From assembly GCF_036567905.1 (NCBI RefSeq), contig NZ_DATCTO010000069.1, positions 27,899 through 91,898 of the forward strand: DNA of 64,000 nt. Direction: 5' to 3'. Below are positions 41,307-62,509 of this stretch, in pieces. Below the pieces are notes generated by a model. The model saw nothing but the letters and a program-made list of their open reading frames with translations, ran no database searches and was not told the DNA's origin. Source of the DNA: Candidatus Binatus sp. (GTDB taxonomy: Bacteria > Desulfobacterota > Binatia > Binatales > Binataceae). Position 1 is the first letter of the stretch; each line of letters begins with the position of its first letter. A program made the position numbers and the translations under genes.

Positions 41307-43628
41307 ATGAAAGTCGTCGATCCGGTGTGCGGGATGCAGGTCGATCCGGCCAACAGCGCCGGATCGTTTGAATACAAAGGCACGAAGTACCATTTCTGTA
41401 GCATCCGCTGTCTCGAGAAATTCAAAAACGATCCTGACAGCTTTGTAACTCCTGCGGCGCCGAAGCCGGCAGCGGCAAGAAGCAGCGCTCCCATGCCAGT
41501 TGCGGCGGGTGCTCCTTTGTATACGTGTCCGATGCATCCGCAGATCGTTCGCTCAGAGCCGGGCAATTGCCCAATCTGCGGAATGACGCTGGAGCCGCGC
41601 GTCGTAAGCGCCGGTGAGGAGGCGTCGCCGGAACTGGCCGATATGACGCGGCGCTTTTGGATAAGCGCCGTGCCCGCGGCTGCGCTGATATTGATCGAAA
41701 TGGCGGACATGATCCCGGGCCGGCCGCTTCAGCGCGTGATGCCCGCATCGCTGCGAACCTGGATCGAATTGGCGCTGGCAACTCCGGTCGTGCTGTGGTC
41801 GGGCTCGCCGCTTTTTGTTCGCGGCTGGGATTCGATCGTCAACCGCAGCCTCAACATGTTCACCTTGATCGGGATGGGTATCGGCGTCGCTTACGGTTAC
41901 AGCTTGTTCGCAGCCGTCTTCCCGAGTCTATTTCCCGATTCATTCCGCGGCGCCGATGGCACCGTCCCGGTTTACTTCGAGGCGGCTGCCGCTATTACCG
42001 CGCTGGTGCTGCTCGGCCAGGTCCTTGAGCTTCGGGCTCGAAGCAATACCAGCAGCGCGATCAAAGCGCTGCTTGGATTGGCGCCAAAGACCGCACGCGC
42101 GATCAGGCCCGACGGCCGCGAGGAGGACATCGCGCTCGATCGCGTCGTCCCGGGAGATCGCTTGCGCGTGAGGCCGGGCGAAAAAGTCCCTGTCGATGGC
42201 GTCGTAGCGGAAGGGACCAGTTCGGTTGACGAATCGATGGTGACCGGCGAGCCAATTCCCGTTGAAAAGAAACCGGGCGACCGCCTGATCGGCGCGACCA
42301 TCAATGGAACCGGTGGATTCATCATGCGCGCCGAGCGGGTTGGCAGCGACACTCTGCTTGCGCAGATCGTCCGCATGGTGAGTGACGCCCAACGCAGCCG
42401 CGCTCCGATTCAGCGGCTCGTCGATATCGTGGCATCGTATTTCGTCCCGGCCGTCGTGCTCTCGGCGGTGATTACTTTCATCGTTTGGGCGATCATCGGC
42501 CCGCAGCCGCGGATGGCCTATGCGCTGGTGAACGCGGTCGCGGTTCTGATCATCGCGTGCCCTTGTGCGCTCGGCCTCGCGACTCCCATGTCGATTATGG
42601 TTGGCACCGGCCGTGGCGCGACTGCGGGCGTGCTGATCAAGAACGCCGAGGCGCTCGAGATTCTCGAGAAGGTGAACACGCTCGTGGTTGACAAGACGGG
42701 GACGCTGACCGAAGGAAAGCCGCGCCTGGTCTCGGTCAGCGCGCTCGACGGGTTCACCGAGGCCGGCGTTTTGCGGCTTGCCGCCAGCCTCGAGCGTGGC
42801 AGTGAGCATCCGCTGGCGGTTGCGATTGTCGCAGGCGCTCAAGAGCGCGGGCTGACTCTGGTTTCCTCCGAGGACTTCAAGTCGGTGACCGGCCAGGGCG
42901 TGACCGGGCGGATCGAAGGCCGCGCTGTAGCGCTTGGAAATCAGCAGATGATGCGCGCGCTCGGCGTTCCCATCGAGGCTGTTTCTGCTGACGCCGACGC
43001 TCAGCGCAACGATGGCCACACCGTGATGTTCGTCGCGATCGACGGCCGTCCTGCCGGACTCATCGGCGTCGCCGATCCAATCAAGGCGTCCACCGCGGAA
43101 GCACTTAAGATGTTGCACGATGACGGCGTCAGGATTGTTGTTTTGACCGGCGACAATCGAATCACCGCGTTGGCAGTCGCGAAAAAGCTTGGCATCGATC
43201 AGGTCGAGGCAGAGGTGATGCCCGATCAGAAAGCGTCGGTGGTGAAACGATTGCAATCGGAAGGACGCATCGTCGCGATGGCCGGCGACGGTATCAACGA
43301 CGCACCTGCGCTGGCGCAGGCGCAGGTCGGGATCGCGATGGGGACGGGTACCGACGTCGCGATGGAGAGCGCGGGCGTCACGCTGGTCAGGGGCGATCTG
43401 CGCGGCATCGCCAAGGCGCGGCGCTTAAGCCGGGCGACGATGCGAAACATCCGGCAGAATCTGTTCTTTGCGTTTTTCTACAACGTGCTTGGGATACCGA
43501 TCGCCGCCGGCGTTCTCTATCCCGCGTTCGGCCTGCTGCTCAGTCCTATTATCGCCAGCGCCGCGATGAGTCTGAGCTCGGTGTCAGTAATCACCAACGC
43601 GCTCAGGCTCAGGAGAGTGAGTCTTTAG
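41307..43628 (+). CDS. copA: copper-translocating P1B-type ATPase
   Basis: N-terminal YHS ([10 protein letters not shown]...[17 protein letters not shown]) and CPxCG metal site, CPC in TM6 ([13 protein letters not shown]), [17 protein letters not shown], and MVGTGRGA. Confidence 0.9.
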
Positions 43629-43704: not shown

Positions 43705-44127
43705 GTGTTAGGCGCCGAGCGAGAAGACAAACGCAGCGTGGCTGATTCGAACAAACCCGATCCTGATTCCCGGGCCAACGACGAACGGGTTGAGGCGCTC
43801 GCCCAAGAGCTCGCCGACCGTCTGCGCGCGATGCCCAATCGCCAGGAACTCACCGACTACGCGGTCAGCCTGCTCAAGGAAAGCAACGAGGATGCGGGCG
43901 CGTCCGAGCAGGCGGCGGCGATGGTCGAGCGGGCGGCGCGCAACGATCCCTTCAACCCGATCGCATTTGCAATTCCACTGCTGGTGATCGGCGCGATACT
44001 ATGCGCGACGGGAATTCTGGCCGGCGTAGGGCTGGGCGTAATCGGGATCGCATTGCTGATGGTGCTGTGGGGATTGATCGTTGCGGTCTTCGGCCGCTTC
44101 CGCCGGCAGGGGCAGGGGCAGGGCTGA
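43705..44127 (+). CDS. hypothetical membrane-anchored protein
   Basis: Acidic soluble N-terminal part followed by two C-terminal TM helices. No recognisable motif. Confidence 0.35.
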   Translation: MLGAEREDKRSVADSNKPDPDSRANDERVEALAQELADRLRAMPNRQELTDYAVSLLKESNEDAGASEQAAAMVERAARNDPFNPIAFAIPLLVIGAILCATGILAGVGLGVIGIALLMVLWGLIVAVFGRFRRQGQGQG

Positions 44128-44204
44128 GCCCTTGTATCTTGCGGTCAGCATCGCAAGATGGATTGAAACTTGGGCGCGGCATGAAGGAAGAATCACCTGC
44201 GCGG

Positions 44205-44308
44205 TGGGCGGCAGGGGCTGCGGGCCCTGCACCCGCAGTGAGAAGACGCGAAAATCTGCGCAGCGCATCTTTTCGCGACTACGCGAGCGGGGGGTGACTC
44301 CTGCACCC
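44205..44308. repeat. ~100-bp palindromic dispersed repeat, copy 2
   Basis: Near-identical to 29503-29590. Both copies generate spurious antisense ORFs containing REKMRCADFRVFSLRVQGPQP. Confidence 0.7.
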
Positions 44309-44620
44309 AGTGAAAAGTGATAAGACGAAGATGCGGGACTTGATCCGCGACGCGAACTCGGTCGCCGGGGCAAAATAATTGCTCCGGCGGTTCAACTTCT
44401 TCCGGCCGCTGCACCGCTCGGTTTCGTCCGTTCGAGCGTATAGAAATCCCGACTTAATGGGGCTTCTATGTTGCAGAACATGGGCAAAATTAGGTAGCCT
44501 TGCCCAGTATTTCGCGCGCGCTTGCGATCGAGCCTCAAGGACCGGAATCTTTTGCGGTGAATTTGCTCAAATTGTGGCGGGCGCCCCTGGCGGGCAGCTC
44601 CTGGGAGTTTAGGGTAGCGG

Positions 44621-45394
44621 ATGGCCAAGTTTGATTGGAAGGAAACGAAACGCCAGATAACCGATTCGCAGGCCTGGCAGTCCATATTCAGACACGGATA
44701 CGAAGACACGCCGCGCAACCGGATCCTGATGGTCTCCGGCAACGTGTGGCTGCATCTGCATCCGGCGAAAGTGCAAAAACACGCGGTGCGCATGCGCTTC
44801 ACCTGGTGCATGGGCGGCATCACGTTTTTGCTTTTCCTGGTGACGGTGGTCACCGGCGTGTACCTGATGTTCTACTATCGGCCGACGGCGGAATACGCCT
44901 ACGCCGACATGAAGTACCTGGAATTCGACATGCCGTTCGGGATGTTGATGCGCAATATGCATCGATGGGCCGCGCACGGAATGGTGATCGCGGTGTGGTT
45001 GCACATGTTCCGCGTGTTCATGACCGGCTCGTACAAGCCGCCGCGCGAGTTCAACTGGGTGGTCGGCGTGATCCTGCTGGTGCTGACGCTGCTGCTGTCG
45101 TTCACCGGATACCTGTTGCCGTGGGATCAACTTTCCATCTGGGCGGTGACGGTCGGCTCGAACATGGCGCGCGCCACGCCGCTGCTTGGACACGGCGGTC
45201 CGTTCCATGAAGTGCTCGGGGTGAATCCGGTTTACGACGCGCGCGCATTTATTTTCGGCGGCGCGGAAATCGGACCGCACACGCTGCTGCGTTTCTACAT
45301 TTTGCACTGCATCTTTTTTCCCTTGATCGCGGGCATCTTCATGGCGGTGCACTTCTGGCGAATCCGCCGCGACGGCATGTCGGGGCCGCTCTAG
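44621..45394 (+). CDS. cytochrome b (b6-like N-terminal domain) of a cytochrome bc-type complex
   Basis: Four-helix haem-b domain with conserved His pairs (RNMHRWAAHGMVIAVWLHMFRVF; LRFYILHCIFFPL) and GYLLPWDQLSIWAVTVG. Confidence 0.8.
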   Translation: MAKFDWKETKRQITDSQAWQSIFRHGYEDTPRNRILMVSGNVWLHLHPAKVQKHAVRMRFTWCMGGITFLLFLVTVVTGVYLMFYYRPTAEYAYADMKYLEFDMPFGMLMRNMHRWAAHGMVIAVWLHMFRVFMTGSYKPPREFNWVVGVILLVLTLLLSFTGYLLPWDQLSIWAVTVGSNMARATPLLGHGGPFHEVLGVNPVYDARAFIFGGAEIGPHTLLRFYILHCIFFPLIAGIFMAVHFWRIRRDGMSGPL

Positions 45395-45569
45395 CACGGG
45401 AGGCGGGCGGTCGATGGGAGGCGTGTTTTCATGGCTGTTGCACGAGGGAATCGTGCGCGTGCTGTCGGTGCCGATCGGGATGTCGATCGTGCTTTATCTA
45501 ATGTACGTGCTGGCGGCGCCGGCTGCGTGGAGCGACGACGAGGACTGAGCGCCTCGTTAGGGATTAATC

Positions 45570-46472
45570 ATGGCAAGCCGGGAAGGTAACGAAGGCGCCG
45601 TCGTGATGCGCGCGGCGGGAGCGGGCGCAGGCGGAGCTGCAGCGAGGACGCCGGCGGCCGGCGGGTCGAAGCGAATCGAAGTTCCGATCAAAAAGGCGGG
45701 CGGCGGCGAAGATAAGCTGCACACCTGGCCGTTTTTGGTGCGCAGCGAATTCCTGATGTCGATTCTGGTGATCATCGTTTTGACGGTGTGGTCGCTGTTG
45801 CTCAACGCGCCGCTGGAGCAGCCGTCGAACCCGACTCGCACGCCGAATCCGTCGAAGGCGCCGTGGTACTTCCTGGGCTTGCAGGAAATGCTGGTGTTCT
45901 TCGACCCATGGTACGCGGGCGTGGTGCTGCCCAGTTTCATTATCGTGGGCCTGATGCTGATTCCGTATCTGGACATCAATCCGAAAGGCAACGGCTACTA
46001 CACGTTTCGCGAGCGATCGTTCGAGATTCTGACTTTCTTCATCGGGTTCCACATTTTATGGGTCTCATTCATCATCATCGGCACATTTTTCCGCGGTCCC
46101 GGATGGAATTGGTTCTGGCCCGGCCAGGTCTGGGATCCGCATCTGGTCGAGGCGCTGACCAACGTCGATTTGCCGTACATGTTCGGCTTCCGCGACTACC
46201 TGGCGTCGGCGCTCTTCGGACTGTCGCTGGTAGTCGGCTACTTCGTGGTCGGGTACGCGGCGCTATATTACTGGATACGATCGCGGCCGGCGGGCGATCC
46301 ATGGTCTGCGTTTCCCGGCGGCGGTCCCGAGATATTGAAGAAATGGGGGCCGGTGCGCTTCGGCATCACGGGATTTCTGCTGATCGCGATGGCCGGGGTG
46401 TTTATCAAGATGGTGCTGCGGCACGCGCTCAACATCAAGTACATCCTGGTTACACCCTGGATTAACATCTGA
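45570..46472 (+). CDS. cytochrome b C-terminal domain protein (subunit-IV/PetD-like, extended)
   Basis: PEWYF-type motif APWYFLGLQEMLVFF plus multiple TM helices. Split b6/subunit-IV organisation. Confidence 0.7.
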   Translation: MASREGNEGAVVMRAAGAGAGGAAARTPAAGGSKRIEVPIKKAGGGEDKLHTWPFLVRSEFLMSILVIIVLTVWSLLLNAPLEQPSNPTRTPNPSKAPWYFLGLQEMLVFFDPWYAGVVLPSFIIVGLMLIPYLDINPKGNGYYTFRERSFEILTFFIGFHILWVSFIIIGTFFRGPGWNWFWPGQVWDPHLVEALTNVDLPYMFGFRDYLASALFGLSLVVGYFVVGYAALYYWIRSRPAGDPWSAFPGGGPEILKKWGPVRFGITGFLLIAMAGVFIKMVLRHALNIKYILVTPWINI

Positions 46473-46741
46473 AGTGGCCGCAACCCCGGTGTTTATCCTC
46501 GCCAAAGTACTGCAGGCGCTCGGAATCGCCGACGTCGGCTTCGCGCTGTACGTCGGGATGACCCAGCCGCACGGGATGGGGAAAGAATACGAGTTCACCG
46601 GGATCGGCGTTTTGGTTTTTCTCGCCGGCTACATCGTCGAGGTCCTGTGGGCTCGCGGGCGTGAATGACTATTGAGTATTTGTGAATATTTGGACGGCGG
46701 CCTCGCGGCGGCATTCGTAGCCGAGGACAGGATAAGAGCAG

Positions 46742-49531
46742 ATGGCTGGCAGACCGGGGCTTGATCCCACTGAAGAAGGAAGATCGTACAGCGCGCTGTT
46801 CGTGCTGATGGTAGCGGTGTTGCTGGTGACCGCGGTCTGGTCGGTTTGGGACGACAACATCTCGCGCCGTCCGTGGAAGGAATACCAGGTCCAGTGGGAT
46901 CGGCTGGCGTACGACAAGTACATGAAGGACGCGGCGGACGAGCAGAAGCGCCTCGACGCCGATCCCGAATACCAGAAAGTCTCGAAGCAGCTGGCCCAGG
47001 CGCGGATCGATCGCGACTCCGGCGCCACCGCGGCCAGGCTGGCCGCGCTGCGCGGGCAGTTGACCGATCTGAACAACGCTGCCGACGACAAGGATCAACT
47101 GGTCCGCTTCACCAAGTCGTATTTGACCGAGCGATGGTACGACTACAACCACGCCGTCCAGGAAAAGGAAGACCCGGGTCCGTACAAAAAGGAAATCGAT
47201 CGGCTCAACGCCGAACTCGCGCGGGAAAGTATCGTCTCCGATAAAGCCAAGGACCATCTGCAGTCGGTCAAGGATCAGATCGAGGCGCTCAACTCGAAGG
47301 TCGAGAGCCTGGCAGATCAGATGAAGAAGCTCACCGCCAAGCTCGACGATTTCTTCGACAAGGCCGACACGTGGATGATCCCGGTCAAGTTCCGCAACAC
47401 CATCCTGTTCCGTTATCCGAAGATTCCGAAGATCGAGCAGACTGCGATCGACGACTTCGACCGCAACGCCTTCGACGAGGCGATCGCGCGGGTCGATCGA
47501 TGCCAGAGCTGTCATATGGGCGCCGACAAGAAGGGCTTCGAGAATGCGCCCGAGCCGTTTCGCACGCATAGCAACTTCGATCAGATCATATTGAAGCATC
47601 CGCCCGAAAAACTCGGATGCACGCCATGTCACGACGGACAGGGGCCCGCGGTCAGCTCGGTGCGGCTGGCGCATGGCGACGATCCGGATTGGGATTCGCC
47701 CATGCTCAGGGGCGACAAGATGCAGTCCCGATGCGTCAAGTGCCATATCGACGTGGGCTCGCTGCACGATGCGGCAGGCAAGCCGATCGCGGCGAACTGG
47801 GTCGAAGGGGAACGGATATTCGAGCAGTTGGGATGCGCGGGATGCCATCTGGTGGCGGGCTACGAGGACATGGCGAAGATCGGCCCGTACCTGAAACTCG
47901 CGTCGGCGAAGCTCGACCCGTCGTGGACCGTGCGATGGATCGCCACACCGCACGTCTTCCGGCCGCACACGCGCATGCCGGACTTCATGTTCTCGCGCGA
48001 GCAGGCGACTGCGCTGGCCGCGTTCATCCTGGACAGTTCGTCGAAGAATTCGAAGGCGTGGCTCGCGGCGCATCCCGAGACTGCGACGCTGGAGGCCGAC
48101 GTCAAGAATCCGGCATTCATCGAAGAAGGCAAGGGGCTGTTCGAATCGGTCGGCTGCAAAGGATGCCACGCGATCGAGCCTGATCAATACGGAACTCCGG
48201 TCGGCGTTGCCGAGGGCTTCAAGCCGGCCCTGGCGCGCACGGCCAAGGACTTCGCGCCCAACCTGGGCAGGATCGCGGAGAAGACTTCGGCGGAGTGGAT
48301 ATATGCGTGGTTGAAGAATCCACGCGACTTCTCGCCGCACACAGCGATGCCGTCGCTGCGCCTGAGCGATCACGACGCCGAAGCGTTGACCGCCTTCCTG
48401 ATGACCCATGGCGAGAAGAAAGAAGACGCCGGCGTTGAAACCGCACTCAAGGATCACGAAAAGATCAAGCAGGGTGAAGCGCTGGTGCGCAAGTATGGAT
48501 GCTTCGGATGCCACGAGATCGAAGGGATGGACAAGGAGTCGCGCACCGGCGTCGAGCTGACGACCTTCGGCTCCAAGCATATCGACGAACTATTTTTCGG
48601 CAACCAGACTCAGATTCCCGAGACGTGGGATCAGTGGACCTCCCATAAACTCCAATCCCCGCGCATCTACGCGACCAGGGACGTCGAGCAGTCGATGCCG
48701 AATTTCGATCTCGACAACGCCGACATCAACAACCTGGTCGTGTTCCTGGCAGGCATGACGCAGGGCACGGTGCAGGAGCGGTACCGGATGCCGGGATCGG
48801 AGCATCAGACGCAAATCGTCGCGGGCCGGCGAATGGTCAATTACTACAACTGCGTCGGCTGCCATATCGTCGAGGATCGTGGCGGTTATATCCGCCGCTT
48901 CTACCCGGGAGATGAAATCAACTTTGCGCCGCCAATACTCAATGGCGAAGGCTTCAAGGTTCAACCCGAGTGGCTATTCGCATTCCTTCAGGGACCGACC
49001 TCGATTCGTCCGTGGCTCAAGATCAGGATGCCGACTTTTCATTTCAACAACGGTGAAGACGACACGATCGTGAATTACTTCACGGCGCTGTCGGACGTGA
49101 ACGTGGTATATACCTTCATCGACACCAACCTGATTGGGCCGGCTGAGCTGGCGGCCGGCGTGAAGCTGATGACCAAGGACTACTTCAACTGCTTCAGTTG
49201 CCATCAGCAGGGCGACAAGAAGCCTGAGGGACCGGCGTCGGGATGGGCGCCCGACCTGGCGCTGGCGTATCAGCGGTTGAATCCGGACTGGATACTGAAG
49301 TGGATCGCAAATCCGTCGGCGCTGCAGCCGGGAACCAAGATGCCGTCGTACTATCCGGGCGGCCCCGACGACATCCTGGGCGGCAACCAGGACAAGCAGA
49401 TCCGCGCGCTAACTGACTATATTTTCTGGCTTGGAACGCATCCGGGGGAGACACCAGCGGGCCAGGTGGCGACCGTTCCGGCAAAAGTGAGTAATGTGGC
49501 GGCCGCGGCGGCGAAAGTGAGTAAGAAGTAG
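46742..49531 (+). CDS. large membrane-anchored multihaem c-type cytochrome (8 CxxCH motifs)
   Basis: CQSCH, CTPCH, CVKCH, CAGCH, CKGCH, CFGCH, CVGCH and CFSCH. The N-terminal TM is followed by a coiled-coil-like region. Several C-terminal class-I cyt c modules (G-x-x-L/F-x-x-x-GCxxCH). Confidence 0.8.
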   Translation: MAGRPGLDPTEEGRSYSALFVLMVAVLLVTAVWSVWDDNISRRPWKEYQVQWDRLAYDKYMKDAADEQKRLDADPEYQKVSKQLAQARIDRDSGATAARLAALRGQLTDLNNAADDKDQLVRFTKSYLTERWYDYNHAVQEKEDPGPYKKEIDRLNAELARESIVSDKAKDHLQSVKDQIEALNSKVESLADQMKKLTAKLDDFFDKADTWMIPVKFRNTILFRYPKIPKIEQTAIDDFDRNAFDEAIARVDRCQSCHMGADKKGFENAPEPFRTHSNFDQIILKHPPEKLGCTPCHDGQGPAVSSVRLAHGDDPDWDSPMLRGDKMQSRCVKCHIDVGSLHDAAGKPIAANWVEGERIFEQLGCAGCHLVAGYEDMAKIGPYLKLASAKLDPSWTVRWIATPHVFRPHTRMPDFMFSREQATALAAFILDSSSKNSKAWLAAHPETATLEADVKNPAFIEEGKGLFESVGCKGCHAIEPDQYGTPVGVAEGFKPALARTAKDFAPNLGRIAEKTSAEWIYAWLKNPRDFSPHTAMPSLRLSDHDAEALTAFLMTHGEKKEDAGVETALKDHEKIKQGEALVRKYGCFGCHEIEGMDKESRTGVELTTFGSKHIDELFFGNQTQIPETWDQWTSHKLQSPRIYATRDVEQSMPNFDLDNADINNLVVFLAGMTQGTVQERYRMPGSEHQTQIVAGRRMVNYYNCVGCHIVEDRGGYIRRFYPGDEINFAPPILNGEGFKVQPEWLFAFLQGPTSIRPWLKIRMPTFHFNNGEDDTIVNYFTALSDVNVVYTFIDTNLIGPAELAAGVKLMTKDYFNCFSCHQQGDKKPEGPASGWAPDLALAYQRLNPDWILKWIANPSALQPGTKMPSYYPGGPDDILGGNQDKQIRALTDYIFWLGTHPGETPAGQVATVPAKVSNVAAAAAKVSKK

Positions 49532-49638
49532 GTTGTTATCGTTTAGTCGATTGAGTTGGCAACTGATTATTCGCTAAGCTGAGAGAGCTTGAGGTAACTA
49601 GCTAACACATACCAGCGATTTCGCAGGAGGGAATGGTA

Positions 49639-50343
49639 ATGAACAAGTTTGGAGTTGTACTGGCGGCGTGTGCGGGTGTCGCGCTCAGCATGACCGTTGG
49701 CGCCAGCCTCGCGAGCGCTGCCGGCGGCACGATCAGCGGAACCATCAAGTACGACGGCACGCCGCCCGTGCCCAGGAAGGTCGAGGTGACCAAGGACAAG
49801 GAAGTATGCGCGCTGCATCCGCACTTCGAAGAGGACCTGGTCGTCGGCAGCGGCGGCGGAATCGCGAACGCGGTTGTGATCGTGAAAGGCGCCAAGGGCG
49901 AGATGAAGCCCGGCGAAGTACAGTTCGAGCAGAAGGGATGCGACTACGTGCCGCACGTGCTCGCGTTCCCGGCGGGCAGCACCGTGGATATCATCAACGC
50001 GGACGGGATTCTGCACAACATCCACACCTATTCGACCAAGAATCCGGCGTTCAACATGGCTCAGCCCAAGTTCAAGAAAGTAATCAAGGAAAAGATCGAT
50101 CAGCCGGAAGTGATCAAGGTCAGCTGCGATGCGCACGGCTGGATGCATGCCTGGTGGGTCGCGACCGACACTCCGTACTTCGCAGTGACCGACGACAAGG
50201 GCAACTATTCGATCGCAGGCGTGCCGCCGGGCAACTACGAAATCGAAGTCTGGCAGGAAAAGCTCGGCACGCAGACTGAGAAAGTCGACGTGAAAGACGG
50301 CGCGACGGCGACCAGCGATTTCTCGCTGAAGCCGAAGGGCTGA
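49639..50343 (+). CDS. secreted cupredoxin-like protein with C-terminal CarbopepD_reg-like domain (putative blue-copper electron carrier)
   Basis: Signal peptide. A possible type-1 Cu site is built from H...C-x-x-H-x-x-M (ILHNIHTY ... CDAHGWMH, an amicyanin-like CxxHxxM). The C-terminus (GNYSIAGVPPGNYEIEVW) resembles a carboxypeptidase-regulatory fold. AGGAGGG RBS. Confidence 0.4.
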   Translation: MNKFGVVLAACAGVALSMTVGASLASAAGGTISGTIKYDGTPPVPRKVEVTKDKEVCALHPHFEEDLVVGSGGGIANAVVIVKGAKGEMKPGEVQFEQKGCDYVPHVLAFPAGSTVDIINADGILHNIHTYSTKNPAFNMAQPKFKKVIKEKIDQPEVIKVSCDAHGWMHAWWVATDTPYFAVTDDKGNYSIAGVPPGNYEIEVWQEKLGTQTEKVDVKDGATATSDFSLKPKG

Positions 50344-50369
50344 GCGTTCGGGTGCGACGAAAGGAGTCG

Positions 50370-50402
50370 CGGGGCTGGAGCAATCCGGCCCCGTTTTCTT
50401 TG
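50370..50402 (+). terminator. rho-independent terminator after cytochrome/cupredoxin operon
   Basis: CGGGGCTGG-agcaat-CCGGCCCCG followed by TTTTCTTT. Confidence 0.5.
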
Positions 50403-50457
50403 GAACAATCCCACTTTTCACTTTTCTCTGTTCGCCGGCGCGATATAATCCGCAGCG

Positions 50458-58697: not shown

Positions 58698-59039
58698 AAG
58701 ATATAGAAACCTCCTCTTCCTCGACTAGCCGTTGTAGCCCAAACATTTGCCGCCGCCAATCTCGCCCCAATCCCTGATTGCCGGACCCGCAGCCGATGCG
58801 ATCATGGGACCACGAAGCACTTGAATTAACTACCGAAATGCAAATATCATGAACAGCCTTAAGCGGACGTTTTGGTGGGTCAACAAAGTTTTTTCATTCC
58901 CCTGATCGTTGCGCTGGCGGGCATAATCACACTCAGTTCATGAATCGCAAGGCGTTGGAACGTTGCATCGGCCGCCTTGATCGGCGCGGCGAGTGCTCGT
59001 CCGGAATTTGCACATTGGCAGCGAAGAGGTGACGCTTCG

Positions 59040-59744
59040 ATGCTCGAGTATCTGTATTTTCCGCACGACATCTCGACCTTCGGACCGCAAATCGATTGGC
59101 TCTTTGAGCTGATCTTCTGGATCGTGCTGGTGGTTTGGACCGCGGTGATGATCACGATGGTGGTCTTCATGATTCGCTATCGCGCCCGGCCTGGCCGCAA
59201 GGCGGAATATATTGAAGGCAATTCGCGGCTCGAGATCATCTGGACCACAGCGACCGCTGCGATCCTGATCGTGCTGGCGTTCATGAGCCGCTCGACGTGG
59301 GCTGATATCAAGGAGCATGGCCCTCCGGGGCAGGTGTTCTACGCGGTGACCGGCAAGCAGTTCAACTGGGAATTCACTTATCCGGGGCCCGACGGCAAAC
59401 TCGGCACCAAGGACGACATCATCGTCGAGAACGAGCTGCACGTGCCGGTCAACAAAGTGGTGCGGGTCGATCTGACCTCGAAAGACGTCATCCACAGTTT
59501 TTACATCCCGAACATGCGTCTGAGGCAGGACGCGGTGCCTGGCCGCATCATCCACGTCTGGTTCGAAGCGACCGAAACCGGGCAATACGAAATACCGTGC
59601 TCGCAGCTGTGCGGCTTCGGGCATTCGGGGATGAAGGGCAATCTGACGGTCGAGTCGCAAGAGGATTTCGACAAGTGGCTCAAGGACCTGTATGCAAACC
59701 CGCCCGCGCCGCCCTCGGCGACCGAAGGAGCTAGCCCAAAATGA
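59040..59744 (+). CDS. coxB: cytochrome c oxidase subunit II (aa3-type, CuA)
   Basis: Two N-terminal TMs and a cupredoxin domain with the CuA ligands H...CSQLCGFGHSGM. Confidence 0.85.
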   Translation: MLEYLYFPHDISTFGPQIDWLFELIFWIVLVVWTAVMITMVVFMIRYRARPGRKAEYIEGNSRLEIIWTTATAAILIVLAFMSRSTWADIKEHGPPGQVFYAVTGKQFNWEFTYPGPDGKLGTKDDIIVENELHVPVNKVVRVDLTSKDVIHSFYIPNMRLRQDAVPGRIIHVWFEATETGQYEIPCSQLCGFGHSGMKGNLTVESQEDFDKWLKDLYANPPAPPSATEGASPK

Positions 59745-61507
59745 GCAGTACGGCAGCGGTTGCGGTACACGGCGCGCACGCGGAGCCTCATGCGCCCGGC
59801 TTTTGGCGCACCTATATCTTCTCCGAAGATCACAAGATGATCGGGAAGCAGTTCCTGTTCATGGCCCTGTTCATGATGGCGATCGGCGGCCTGATGGCGA
59901 TGCTGATGCGCTGGGAGCTGGCGTGGCCGGAGACCCAGGTCCCGGGATTTCACTGGGTGCCCGAACCGTTCATGTACGAGGGCGCGATTCCGCCCAATAC
60001 CTACAACGCGATGTTCACGATGCACGCCACGATCATGATCTTCTTCGTGGTGATGCCGATCCTGGTCGGATGTTTCGGCAACTTCCTCATCCCGCTGATG
60101 ATCGGCGCGCGCGACATGGCGTTCCCCAAGCTGAACATGCTGTCGTTCTGGACCGGCGCGGTCGCGGGCGTGATCCTGCTTTCCTCGTTCTTCGTAACCG
60201 GCGGTCCTGCGGCCGCGGGATGGACCTCGTACGCGCCGCTGAGCGCGGTGCCAATCTACACCGGCGTCGATTGGGGCCAGAACCTATGGTGCATCAGCAT
60301 CATCGTGCTTGGCGCGTCGTCGCTGATGGGCTCGATCAACTACATCACCACGATCATCAACATGCGCACCAAGGGCATGTACTTCTTCCGCCTGCCGCTG
60401 ACGATCTGGTCGCTGTTCATCACGGCGATTCTGCTGCTGCTCGCGCTTCCGGTGCTGACGACGGCGATCGCGCTCCTGCTCTTCGATCGACTGGGCGGCA
60501 CCCATTTCTTTCTGCCCGCCGGTGGCGGAGAGCCGCTGCTGTGGCAGCATCTGTTCTGGTTTTTCGGCCATCCCGAGGTTTACATCATGATCCTGCCCGC
60601 GATGGGGATCGCCTCCGACGTCATCTCGACGTTTTCGCGCAAGCCCATATTCGGATACCGCGCGATGGCGTATGCGATGATCGCGATCGCGGGCCTGTCG
60701 TGGATCGTGTGGGGCCATCACATGTTCGTGTCGGGGATGGATCCGGTGCTCGGCAGCGGTTTCATGATCACGACGATGATCATCGGAGTGCCGTCGGCGA
60801 TTAAGACTTTCAACTGGCTCGGCACGCTCTACAAGGGCAACATCCATTACACCACCGCGATGATGAACGCGCTGGCGTTTGTCGCGATGTTCGTGATCGG
60901 CGGACTGTCGGGAATCTGGATGGCGTGCACGCCGGTGGACATGTACATCCACGATACTTACTTCATCGTCGCGCATATTCACTACGTGCTATTTGGCGGC
61001 AGCCTGTTCGGCGTCTTCGCGGGAATTACCTATTGGTATCCCAAGATGTTCGGCCGCATGATGAACGAGCGGCTTGGCAAGATTCACTTCTGGATCACCT
61101 TCGTGTCGTTCAATTGCACCTTCTTCCCGATGCACATCCTGGGGATGGCGGGACACATGCGCCGGATTTACAATCCGCAGCAGTACGATTTTTTGAAGCC
61201 GATCATTCCGATTAACGAATTTATTTCGATCAGCGCTTTCGTGCTCGGCGCCGCGCAGTTCCTGCTGCTGGCCAATATCATCTGGAGCTATTTCAAGGGC
61301 GCCAAGGCCACCGAGAATCCGTGGCACGCCAATACTCTGGAGTGGACGACGCCTTCGCCGCCGCCGCACGGCAACTGGCCCGGTACGGTGCCGATCGTTT
61401 ACCGGGGACCGTACGAGTACAGCTCGCCCGAGGTTGCGGAGGATTATCTGCCGCAATCGCAGTTGATTGAACACCACAGGGACGCGGCGGATAGGCGATC
61501 GCGCTAA
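59741..61507 (+). CDS. coxA: cytochrome c oxidase subunit I
   Basis: 12-TM protein with WFFGHPEVY, HHMF and the haem/CuB His ligands. ATGA overlap with coxB. Confidence 0.95.
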   Translation: MSSTAAVAVHGAHAEPHAPGFWRTYIFSEDHKMIGKQFLFMALFMMAIGGLMAMLMRWELAWPETQVPGFHWVPEPFMYEGAIPPNTYNAMFTMHATIMIFFVVMPILVGCFGNFLIPLMIGARDMAFPKLNMLSFWTGAVAGVILLSSFFVTGGPAAAGWTSYAPLSAVPIYTGVDWGQNLWCISIIVLGASSLMGSINYITTIINMRTKGMYFFRLPLTIWSLFITAILLLLALPVLTTAIALLLFDRLGGTHFFLPAGGGEPLLWQHLFWFFGHPEVYIMILPAMGIASDVISTFSRKPIFGYRAMAYAMIAIAGLSWIVWGHHMFVSGMDPVLGSGFMITTMIIGVPSAIKTFNWLGTLYKGNIHYTTAMMNALAFVAMFVIGGLSGIWMACTPVDMYIHDTYFIVAHIHYVLFGGSLFGVFAGITYWYPKMFGRMMNERLGKIHFWITFVSFNCTFFPMHILGMAGHMRRIYNPQQYDFLKPIIPINEFISISAFVLGAAQFLLLANIIWSYFKGAKATENPWHANTLEWTTPSPPPHGNWPGTVPIVYRGPYEYSSPEVAEDYLPQSQLIEHHRDAADRRSR

Positions 61508-61513
61508 CAGCGA

Positions 61514-62509
61514 ATGAATCAGTTGCAGTTGTCAGCCGGGGATGAGCAGGCGCGCGGACTGCATCGCTTTGCGGTGCTGACCGCGGGCGCCACTTTTTGC
61601 CTCATCTTCGTCGGCGGACTTGTCACCTCGACCGGTTCTGCGCTGGCCGTGCCGGACTGGCCGCTGGCGTTCGGCAAACTCATTCCGGCGTGGGAGGGCG
61701 GCATCCGTTTCGAATTTGGCCATCGCCTGGCTGCCGGAACAGTCGTAGTTCTTACGCTGGTGCTGATGGCATGGGCATGGCGCGCGGAGCCGCGGCGATG
61801 GGTCCGCAAACTTGTCGTGCTCGCGTTCGGACTGATCGTCGTGCAGGCCGTGCTGGGCGGAATCACAGTGCTGTTCGAGTTGCCGCTGGCGATCGCGGTT
61901 GCGCACGCCGCCACGGCTCAGGCGCTGTTGTGCCTGATGGTATCGATCGCTATTTTCACCAATCCGCGCTGGAGCACGACCCCGCACGTCGATGATCCGC
62001 CGTCGCGAATCCCGCTGCCGACACTTGCCGCCGCGATGACCGCCGTCATTTACCTGCAAATTTTGATCGGCGCGGTGATGCGGCACATGAGCGCCGGGCT
62101 GGTGATCCCCGATTTTCCGCTTTCGTTCGGCCGTTTGGCGCCGCCGTACTGGAACGAGTACATCGCGGTTAATTTTGCGCATCGATGCGGTGCCGTGGTT
62201 GTCACCGCGATGGTTTTGTGGACGGTCGCGCGCGTGCTGCGGACGCATCGCGAGGTCGGCGCGCTTCGCCGCCCCGCGCTCGGGTTGTTTCTGCTGCTGG
62301 TTATCCAGATTTGTCTCGGTGCGATCACAATCTGGAGCGACCGCGCGGTGCTCCCGACCACCAGCCACGTTGCGGTCGGCGCCGCGGTTCTGGCGACCAG
62401 CCTGACGCTGACGCTTCGTGCATATCGCATCCTCGGCGCGCCGTCTCGCGCCCACGCGATCGAGTCGCACGCGAGTTCGCGCGTAATCGAACGGCAGGTG
62501 ACCGCGTGA
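61514..62509 (+). CDS. ctaA: haem A synthase (COX15/CtaA)
   Basis: Eight TMs with paired His motifs (FEFGHRLAAG and LIGAVMRH) typical of CtaA. Confidence 0.8.
   Translation: MNQLQLSAGDEQARGLHRFAVLTAGATFCLIFVGGLVTSTGSALAVPDWPLAFGKLIPAWEGGIRFEFGHRLAAGTVVVLTLVLMAWAWRAEPRRWVRKLVVLAFGLIVVQAVLGGITVLFELPLAIAVAHAATAQALLCLMVSIAIFTNPRWSTTPHVDDPPSRIPLPTLAAAMTAVIYLQILIGAVMRHMSAGLVIPDFPLSFGRLAPPYWNEYIAVNFAHRCGAVVVTAMVLWTVARVLRTHREVGALRRPALGLFLLLVIQICLGAITIWSDRAVLPTTSHVAVGAAVLATSLTLTLRAYRILGAPSRAHAIESHASSRVIERQVTA

Follow-up and report, generated by a model that had tools for sequence, protein, structure and literature searches.

The closest described relatives of the locus considered here are the octahaem cytochrome c-containing complexes of Nitrospina gracilis, Ca. 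Kuenenia stuttgartiensis (Kustd1480-1485 and Kuste4569-4574) and Ca. Methylomirabilis oxyfera. According to the genome paper on N. gracilis, Kuenenia and Methylomirabilis share the operon of that species, "including a similar octaheme protein" (PMC3578206), and the Kuenenia complexes are described as containing a b6-like cytochrome b, a five-helix subunit IV and a hexa- or octahaem cytochrome c (PMC12954380). The present analysis concerns an operon in a 64-kb stretch of DNA from Candidatus Binatus sp. (contig NZ_DATCTO010000069.1; hereafter, the window), in which a b6-type cytochrome b, a subunit-IV-like protein (SUIV), an octahaem cytochrome c and a predicted cupredoxin are encoded with no Rieske gene beside them. 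A 100%-identical database protein points to the same organism, a member of Binatota. Probably, this locus provides the membrane core and the periplasmic electron-exit module of a b6f-like Rieske/cytochrome b complex, the Rieske gene of which has moved to a separate locus. It is a new member of a known, biochemically uncharacterised Rieske/cytochrome b family with a lineage-specific Rieske relocation, and it is less unusual than it looked, because the Rieske gene sits elsewhere in the genomes of the lineage.

The Binatus operon exhibits considerable similarities to the Nitrospina/Kuenenia/Methylomirabilis type, namely a split b6-type cytochrome b with a CxGG motif, an SUIV with about five transmembrane helices and an octahaem cytochrome c encoded right after SUIV, but there are also clear differences. 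Its Rieske gene lies outside the operon, a cupredoxin gene and three genes for small membrane proteins are added, the NAD(P) oxidoreductase and HAO-like subunits of the anammox versions are absent, and the host is an aerobic soil bacterium. The cyanobacterial and chloroplast b6f complex (PetB, PetD, PetC and PetA), taken together with plastocyanin, offers the closest solved cytochrome b6 and shares the split between cytochrome b and SUIV, the haem cn cysteine, small hydrophobic peptides encoded alongside and, if our prediction of the acceptor is right, a type-1 cupredoxin. Unlike b6f, the Binatus locus encodes an unrelated octahaem cytochrome c for cytochrome f, an SUIV with five rather than three transmembrane helices and with APWY instead of PEWY, and a cupredoxin with an extra Ig-like domain and a ligand loop of amicyanin length; there is also no photosynthetic context.

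Reading of the window sequence and its translations confirmed the positions of the four open reading frames (ORFs) recognised in a first-pass annotation, and its description of them as a split b6-type cytochrome b, a membrane-anchored 929-residue cytochrome c with eight CxxCH motifs and a secreted amicyanin-like protein holds on all three counts, as detailed below. The cytochrome b subunit (44621-45394, forward strand, as are all genes given here; 257 residues, four transmembrane helices) matches Pfam PF00033 at 1e-43, and its closest solved structures are the cytochromes b6 of b6f complexes (about 1e-49), with cytochromes b of bc1 complexes following at 1e-27. The protein was searched against 1.8 billion cluster representatives and diverse matches were aligned (81 sequences), among which the haem b ligands H114/H128 and H229/H244, which show the b6-type spacing in helix D, are invariant (81/81). 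The CxGG motif, C63-M-G-G in the window, keeps its Cys in 52 of the 81 homologues and both Gly in 80-81 of them, and by comparison of sequences C63 could be a covalent ligand of haem cn. This motif was defined by Dibrova et al., who report it as a trait of cytochrome b subfamily G, a taxonomically diverse group including Nitrospinae and planctomycete sequences (PMC5600118), to which the window cytochrome b probably belongs. Also invariant, in 80-81 of the 81 family members, are H45 and H47 of an "HLHP" motif and R247 and R249 near the C-terminus. For the Kuenenia complexes, AlphaFold3 models place an unexpected extra haem b between the monomers by way of His43 and Arg247 of Kuste4571 (PMC12954380). 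H45 and R249 are each offset by two from these positions and appear, from the numbering, to be the same residues; if this match is right, the extra haem b site would be family-wide and not specific to anammox bacteria.

SUIV (45570-46472; 300 residues; PF00032, 1.7e-6) shows five hydropathy peaks, consistent with about five transmembrane helices, and carries the Qo motif K-A-P-W-Y-F-L-G-L-Q-E together with the C-terminal motif NIKYILVTPWINI. Among 75 homologues, A-P-W-Y at residues 97-100 is identical throughout and the longer APWYFLGLQ is invariant or nearly so. Measured against relatives that are linked to a Rieske gene, the Binatus proteins retain 94 of 95 cytochrome b positions and 57 of 58 SUIV positions that are at least 95% conserved. 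All seven operon ORFs are under purifying selection within the Binatus clade, the ratio of nonsynonymous to synonymous substitution rates (dN/dS) being 0.03-0.06 for cytochrome b, 0.08-0.10 for SUIV, 0.17-0.18 for the cytochrome c, 0.25-0.30 for the cupredoxin and, for the three small ORFs described below, 0.11-0.23 (hyp140), 0.2-0.4 (sp44) and 0.17-0.32 (sp59). The retention of conserved positions in cytochrome b and SUIV, combined with their low dN/dS, indicates that the genes are functional and gives no sign of a rebuilt Qo side. Only one family-conserved SUIV position has changed clade-wide: residue 110, ten residues after the APWY tyrosine, is Tyr in 67 of the 75 family members and Phe in every Binatus-clade sequence. 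The change coincides with the relocation of the Rieske gene.

The absence of a Rieske gene from the window, as claimed in the first-pass annotation, was corroborated in two ways. A six-frame scan of the whole window for CxH...CxxH gave a single match, at 62320, which was judged off-frame, leaving no Rieske motif in a plausible frame; and seven operon-encoded Rieske proteins, used as tblastn queries on the window and on five Binatus loci, returned only chance matches. The 493-bp non-coding gap upstream of the cytochrome b gene (44128-44620) occupies the position where other Binatia carry a Rieske gene of about 600 bp. A degraded Rieske pseudogene in this gap was considered and rejected, as tblastn with the seven Rieske proteins found no remnant there.

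For a broader comparison, 80 species-representative genomic loci (labelled L001 onward) were compared at the ORF level, with Rieske genes recognised by the motif CxHLGC...CPCH and, in a looser pattern, by the CQHLGC variants of two anammox-like loci. The gene order conserved across phyla is Rieske, b6-type cytochrome b, long SUIV and octahaem cytochrome c, often followed by the cupredoxin, and it recurs in Acidobacteriota, Planctomycetota, Nitrospinota, Poribacteria and other Binatia. Outside the Binatus clade a Rieske gene is present in 74 of 78 loci, nearly always ending a few hundred bases before the cytochrome b gene, and the remaining four lie on contigs cut less than 200 bp upstream of cytochrome b; hence all 74 informative loci carry it. 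The operon without Rieske occurs only in the Binatus/Binataceae clade (L001-L004 and L017), where the cytochrome b is 93-98% identical to that of the window (L004 and L017 by tblastn; L001, L002 and L017 in the alignment) and where no Rieske gene occurs within 10 kb of the operon in any of the five loci. The order in other Binatia (L005-L008, L085 and L086) is a hyp140-like gene, Rieske and cytochrome b, and in the Binatus clade it is hyp140, a gap of about 200-490 bp and cytochrome b. Variations on the operon were also seen: in Ca. Brocadia sapporoensis (L030, 10756-14711), an insertion of about 4 kb stands between cytochrome b and SUIV, its product being presumably the subunit of NAD(P) oxidoreductase type that has been described in Kuenenia, and in another locus (L079) a 615-residue ORF lies between the Rieske and cytochrome b genes.

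The missing gene is found at a distance. A search for Rieske homologues with an operon-encoded Binatia protein, that of L006, gave no Binatus-named match among the 120 matches listed. It led to P0355, a 195-residue Rieske protein with no cytochrome b nearby (L084), and P0355, used in turn as the query, revealed a clade of orphan Rieske proteins. One of these, P0424, is encoded on JBGPUE010000003.1 (102,886 bp, Ca. Binataceae), a contig that also bears the Rieske-less operon L004, whose cytochrome b is 93% identical to that of the window. On this contig the Rieske gene lies at about 92.9-93.5 kb and cytochrome b starts at about 3.6 kb (from the reported ranges), which places the orphan Rieske gene about 89 kb upstream of the operon on the same strand. 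Since the window has only 44.6 kb upstream of cytochrome b, a Rieske gene at about 89 kb would fall outside it. The same 90%-identity cluster includes two proteins annotated at NCBI, [quoted passage not shown] (WP_428125336.1) and "petC [Candidatus Binatus sp.]". The Ca. Binatus soli locus lacks cytochrome b and has a conserved arrangement of a secreted 144-residue protein, Rieske, an alpha/beta-hydrolase and PMT.

The orphan Rieske genes (L084, L088, L091 and L093-L096) are full length, and their products keep a twin-arginine-like SRRDF, a transmembrane helix and the cluster-binding boxes CTHLGCTP...KCPCHGSG. In a neighbour-joining tree they nest inside the clade of operon-encoded Rieske proteins of Binatia. 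The Rieske gene has been relocated, not lost, in the Binatus/Binataceae lineage. Rieske and cytochrome b genes likewise occupy separate loci, petCA and petBD, in cyanobacteria. In the words of Dibrova et al., the genes for Rieske proteins are "not always located next to cyts b" (PMC5600118), and the supplementary text of a Binatota genome survey (PMC8262859) lists ISP and cytochrome b genes, without cytochrome c1, for Binatales. As to the surroundings of the relocated gene, one for an alpha/beta-hydrolase of about 267 residues always follows it (L084 and L088-L096), and one for an unrelated secreted protein of about 150 residues directly precedes it in L084 and L093-L096, with a homologue about 2.7 kb upstream in L091.

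The octahaem cytochrome c (46742-49531; 929 residues; Pfam Cytochrom_C, Cytochrome_CBB3 and Cytochrome_C7) has an N-terminal transmembrane anchor (residues 17-35), its only one, a coiled-coil region at about 60-210 and exactly eight CxxCH motifs at residues 254, 293, 331, 365, 472, 587, 704 and 817. The haems at 254, 293 and 331 are closely spaced and c7/c3-like, and those at 365, 472, 587, 704 and 817 fall in class-I cytochrome c domains. A homologous cytochrome c with exactly eight CxxCH follows SUIV in 57 of the 80 loci and measures 859-1575 residues where complete. Its gene lies in the position of that for cytochrome f or c1, the place of which the octahaem protein would appear to take.

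The protein encoded at 49633-50343 (236 residues; the database homologue begins at M3, 49639) has a signal peptide, a cupredoxin domain at about 95-178 and an Ig-like CarboxypepD_reg domain at 178-233 (PF13620, 1e-10), and it carries the JGI name "plastocyanin". Pfam Copper-bind and Cupredoxin_1 give no match in it. Its AlphaFold2 model (predicted local distance difference test score, pLDDT, 77.5) has as top Foldseek matches in the PDB the Nitrosopumilus purple cupredoxin (5fc9), amicyanin, pseudoazurin and plastocyanin, with E-values of 1e-4 to 2e-3 and target TM-scores of 0.45-0.66. The site is H128...C165-x2-H168-x2-M171, and these four residues, along with N129, are invariant in all 46 cupredoxin homologues drawn from related loci (Binatia, Acidobacteriota, Planctomycetota, Poribacteria, Omnitrophota and others). 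The N-terminal His ligand, which had been set beforehand as the test of this assignment, is therefore present as H128 in each of them. On these sequences and the model, the protein is predicted to be a genuine amicyanin-like type-1 cupredoxin, which would share with amicyanin, plastocyanin and pseudoazurin the fold, the His...Cys-x2-His-x2-Met set with its adjacent Asn and secretion to the periplasm. It differs from them in its C-terminal CarboxypepD_reg domain, in a nearly invariant QxGCxYxPH motif (C103, H108) and in being tied genomically to a bc complex and not to a dehydrogenase. The QxGCxYxPH motif stands just before the cupredoxin core, with C103 in 45 and H108 in 42 of the 46 homologues; it lies outside the classical type-1 site and could bind a second metal or an interaction partner. 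Conservation of C59 is limited to Binatia. Across phyla, the cupredoxin gene follows that of the octahaem cytochrome c in 37 of the 80 scanned loci. One 517-residue ORF, in L078, matches CoxII as well as the cupredoxin.

Genes for an aa3-type oxidase lie 8.6 kb downstream of the operon (58977-62509). Pfam matches identify CoxII (58977-59744), CoxI (59741-61507) and the haem A synthase CtaA (61514-62509), and an ORF for a UbiA-family prenyltransferase taken to be CtaB accompanies them. CoxII has a CuA site with the motif CSQLCGFGHSGM and no fused cytochrome c, and it therefore needs an external electron donor. Comparison with other loci lends support to the link with this oxidase suggested in the first-pass annotation. 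The ctaA gene begins downstream of the cupredoxin gene, at a distance of up to about 300 bp, in 19 related loci (L019, L023, L035, L046, L048, L053, L055, L057, L059, L061-L063, L066, L067, L069, L074, L077, L083 and L086), and cox1/cox2 lie within 10 kb, inside the fetched flank, in about 10; L023 and L083 have the order cupredoxin, ctaA, cox2, cox1. L043 lacks the cupredoxin gene and has ctaA, cox2 and cox1 after that of the octahaem cytochrome c. The aa3 oxidase is thus the probable acceptor of the electrons leaving the operon-encoded proteins.

We infer from this gene content how the subunits would assemble, in which direction electrons would move and between which partners. Menaquinol would be oxidised at a Qo site formed by cytochrome b and the APWY loop of SUIV. 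One electron would pass to the Rieske [2Fe-2S] cluster, then to the octahaem cytochrome c and the secreted type-1 cupredoxin, and the cupredoxin, as a soluble one-electron carrier of the periplasm, would deliver it to the CuA centre of the aa3 oxidase. The second electron would reach the Qi site across the membrane by way of bL and bH, with cn on Cys63 probably taking part, the overall process being a proton-motive Q cycle. The Rieske protein that the complex is still expected to use would be the one encoded elsewhere, beside the alpha/beta-hydrolase gene.

The first-pass annotation had instead read the locus as a Rieske-less quinol oxidoreductase resembling the Cbc complexes, and had named a Rieske gene elsewhere as the finding that would speak against this; such a gene exists in the Binatus lineage, both about 89 kb away on the same contig and in Ca. 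Binatus soli. A genuinely Rieske-less complex, in which a haem of the octahaem cytochrome c takes the first Qo electron and the orphan Rieske protein serves something else, would explain why the gene is missing from the window and from the 10 kb around the operon in the five clade loci, why this arrangement is stable across the clade and under purifying selection, and perhaps why Y110F is fixed in SUIV. However, the lineage keeps an intact orthologous Rieske protein with its membrane anchor and cluster ligands, the only known partner type of which is this very cytochrome b family, and the near-complete retention of conserved cytochrome b and SUIV positions is unlike what a re-engineered Qo site would leave. 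Separate loci for the two genes are, moreover, normal elsewhere, as in cyanobacteria. The broader family has examples of its own (PMC5600118). Such a complex is accordingly very unlikely here. A Geobacter-type Cbc-like module, with the multihaem cytochrome sending electrons outward to metals and not to an oxidase, is barely credible, and nothing supports an intrinsically Rieske-less, Cbc-like family, given that all 74 informative loci of other lineages have the gene. In favour of such a module are the c7/c3-like multihaem stretch of the cytochrome c and the best NCBIfam matches of the operon proteins, which are to ExtP, ExtQ and ExtS of the Geobacter sulfurreducens selenite/tellurite cluster (ExtOPQS being part of extHIJKLMNOPQS), a system that likewise has a b6-type cytochrome b, a small membrane partner and a multihaem cytochrome c and supplies the best-scoring curated models. 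Yet all three scores fall below the family cut-offs (cytochrome b to ExtP, 271.5 versus 290 bits; SUIV to ExtQ, 55.2 versus 150; part of the cytochrome c to ExtS, 66.5 versus 100), and membership of ExtPQS was rejected. ExtS is a four-haem lipoprotein, and the ext cluster itself has a Rieske protein, ExtO, as well as a porin, a rhodanese and further multihaem cytochromes (PMC5877670), and has no cupredoxin, whereas neither Pfam scans nor called-gene listings of operon-adjacent genes show a porin or rhodanese family. Class-I domains, of the kind usual in high-potential carriers, hold five of the eight Binatus haems. A blue-copper protein, haem A synthase and aa3 oxidase are what is conserved next to the operon, and the host is an aerobe by genome inference (PMC8262859).

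A further alternative accepts the Rieske/cytochrome b complex and questions only the destination of its electrons. The cupredoxin might mainly be a point of electron entry or branching, with donors such as methylamine dehydrogenase or with delivery to Cu-nitrite or NO reductases, instead of a dedicated link to aa3. The amicyanin length of the C-x2-H-x2-M loop and the presence of amicyanin among the best fold matches fit this idea, as do the methylamine dehydrogenase encoded by Binatota (PMC8262859), the separate transcription of the window oxidase genes and the service of related anammox and Nitrospina operons in non-oxidase metabolism (PMC12954380, PMC3578206). It has a small but appreciable chance of being right, considering that the cupredoxin gene goes together with the bc operon in many phyla that are not known as methylotrophs (Acidobacteriota, Planctomycetota and Poribacteria), that ctaA directly follows it in 19 loci and that no mau genes lie near it in the window.

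Several points weigh against the preferred reading of a b6f-like complex with a relocated Rieske subunit that feeds the aa3 oxidase. The Rieske gene of the window genome is assigned by extension from congeners and a confamilial contig, because it was seen only there, and use of the orphan protein by the window's complex is in turn presumed. SUIV Y110F could reflect some adjustment on the Qo side. The oxidase appears not to be co-transcribed with the operon here, as the two are separated by unrelated genes, some on each strand, and by a strong terminator-like hairpin, predicted from the sequence after the cupredoxin gene, which marks the window oxidase as its own transcription unit; and the cupredoxin could serve partners other than the oxidase. 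In addition, it is mainly alternative complex III to which the Binatota genome survey assigns quinol:cytochrome c activity (PMC8262859), and the main route may therefore be other than the window's complex. No alternative complex III subunits (ActB, NrfD-like ActC/F) turned up when the operon-encoded proteins were scanned with Pfam, the families in these proteins being only Cytochrome_B, Cytochrom_B_C, cytochrome c and CarboxypepD_reg.

Three conserved ORFs of the operon had been missed in the first-pass annotation. The first operon gene, hyp140 (43705-44127), encodes a small membrane protein of 140 residues that is helical and acidic in its N-terminal region and ends in a hydrophobic transmembrane hairpin; it has an "L(T/R)DYAVSLL" motif, and no redox motif or Pfam match. 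It is specific to Binatia and always opens the operon, ahead of Rieske in other Binatia and directly ahead of cytochrome b in the Binatus clade, so that it remained with cytochrome b when the Rieske gene moved; it is a candidate accessory subunit. A role for hyp140 as a Rieske substitute was rejected, as it lacks any redox motif of Cys and His and as other Binatia have its homologues alongside Rieske. The 44-residue single-transmembrane peptide sp44 (45414-45548) has an ORF at the same position in L001, L002, L004 and L017, and the hydrophobic peptide sp59 (46474-46668; about 59-64 residues, its start codon being uncertain) lies between SUIV and the cytochrome c across Binatia (L001-L008, L017, L085 and L086). 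Both are candidate small subunits and may be analogous to PetG/L/M/N.

At the 3' side, the hairpin (50369-50394, 11 bp with 8 G-C) with its T-rich tail, together spanning 50369-50404 on the forward strand, is the likely end of the operon. The 493-bp gap upstream of cytochrome b probably contains the operon promoter; a scan found no sigma-70 consensus promoter, and neither the operon nor the gap matched any Rfam family at E up to 1. The ORF at 41307-43628, which immediately precedes the operon, translates to a CopA-like P-type ATPase for copper, the N-terminal metal-binding domain of which is of the YHS/TRASH type. A CopA-like ATPase is also found near the operon in L001, where it is annotated YHS, HMBD and E1-E2_ATPase, and it is conceivable, as a conjecture, that the enzyme supplies copper to the cupredoxin or to CuA. 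Pfam scans of ten other large ORFs in the window gave no respiration-related match.

Beyond the Binatus lineage, the family may represent a distinct and widespread form of complex III, a proposal which we put forward tentatively and with slightly less than even confidence as a whole. It would combine an octahaem cytochrome c and a two-domain cupredoxin in place of c1/f and the soluble carrier, direct wiring to an A-type haem-copper oxidase, which is suggested because ctaA and cox genes adjoin the operon genomically, one more haem b, held by H45 with R247/R249 where the monomers meet, and, in Binatus, a separate Rieske locus. It would be distributed in soil and sediment among Acidobacteriota, Binatota, Planctomycetota, Poribacteria, Omnitrophota and others. 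The features that lend the locus a modest interest of its own are the phylum-spanning link between cupredoxin and ctaA/cox, the three small membrane ORFs and the invariance of H45, H47, R247 and R249.

Finally, a bc complex truly devoid of a Rieske protein would have called the bifurcated Q-cycle mechanism into question, and with the Rieske gene relocated in the lineage, that claim falls away. If the separate locus is indeed the source of the Rieske subunit, it would allow independent regulation of the membrane core and the iron-sulfur subunit. Recognition of the relocation also guards against annotating Binatota as lacking a functional complex III, and a b6-type complex with an octahaem cytochrome c provides a defined target for biochemical and structural work. 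Because this operon recurs across uncultured soil phyla together with a blue-copper partner and ctaA/oxidase genes, it is a good candidate for their main route from quinol to oxygen.

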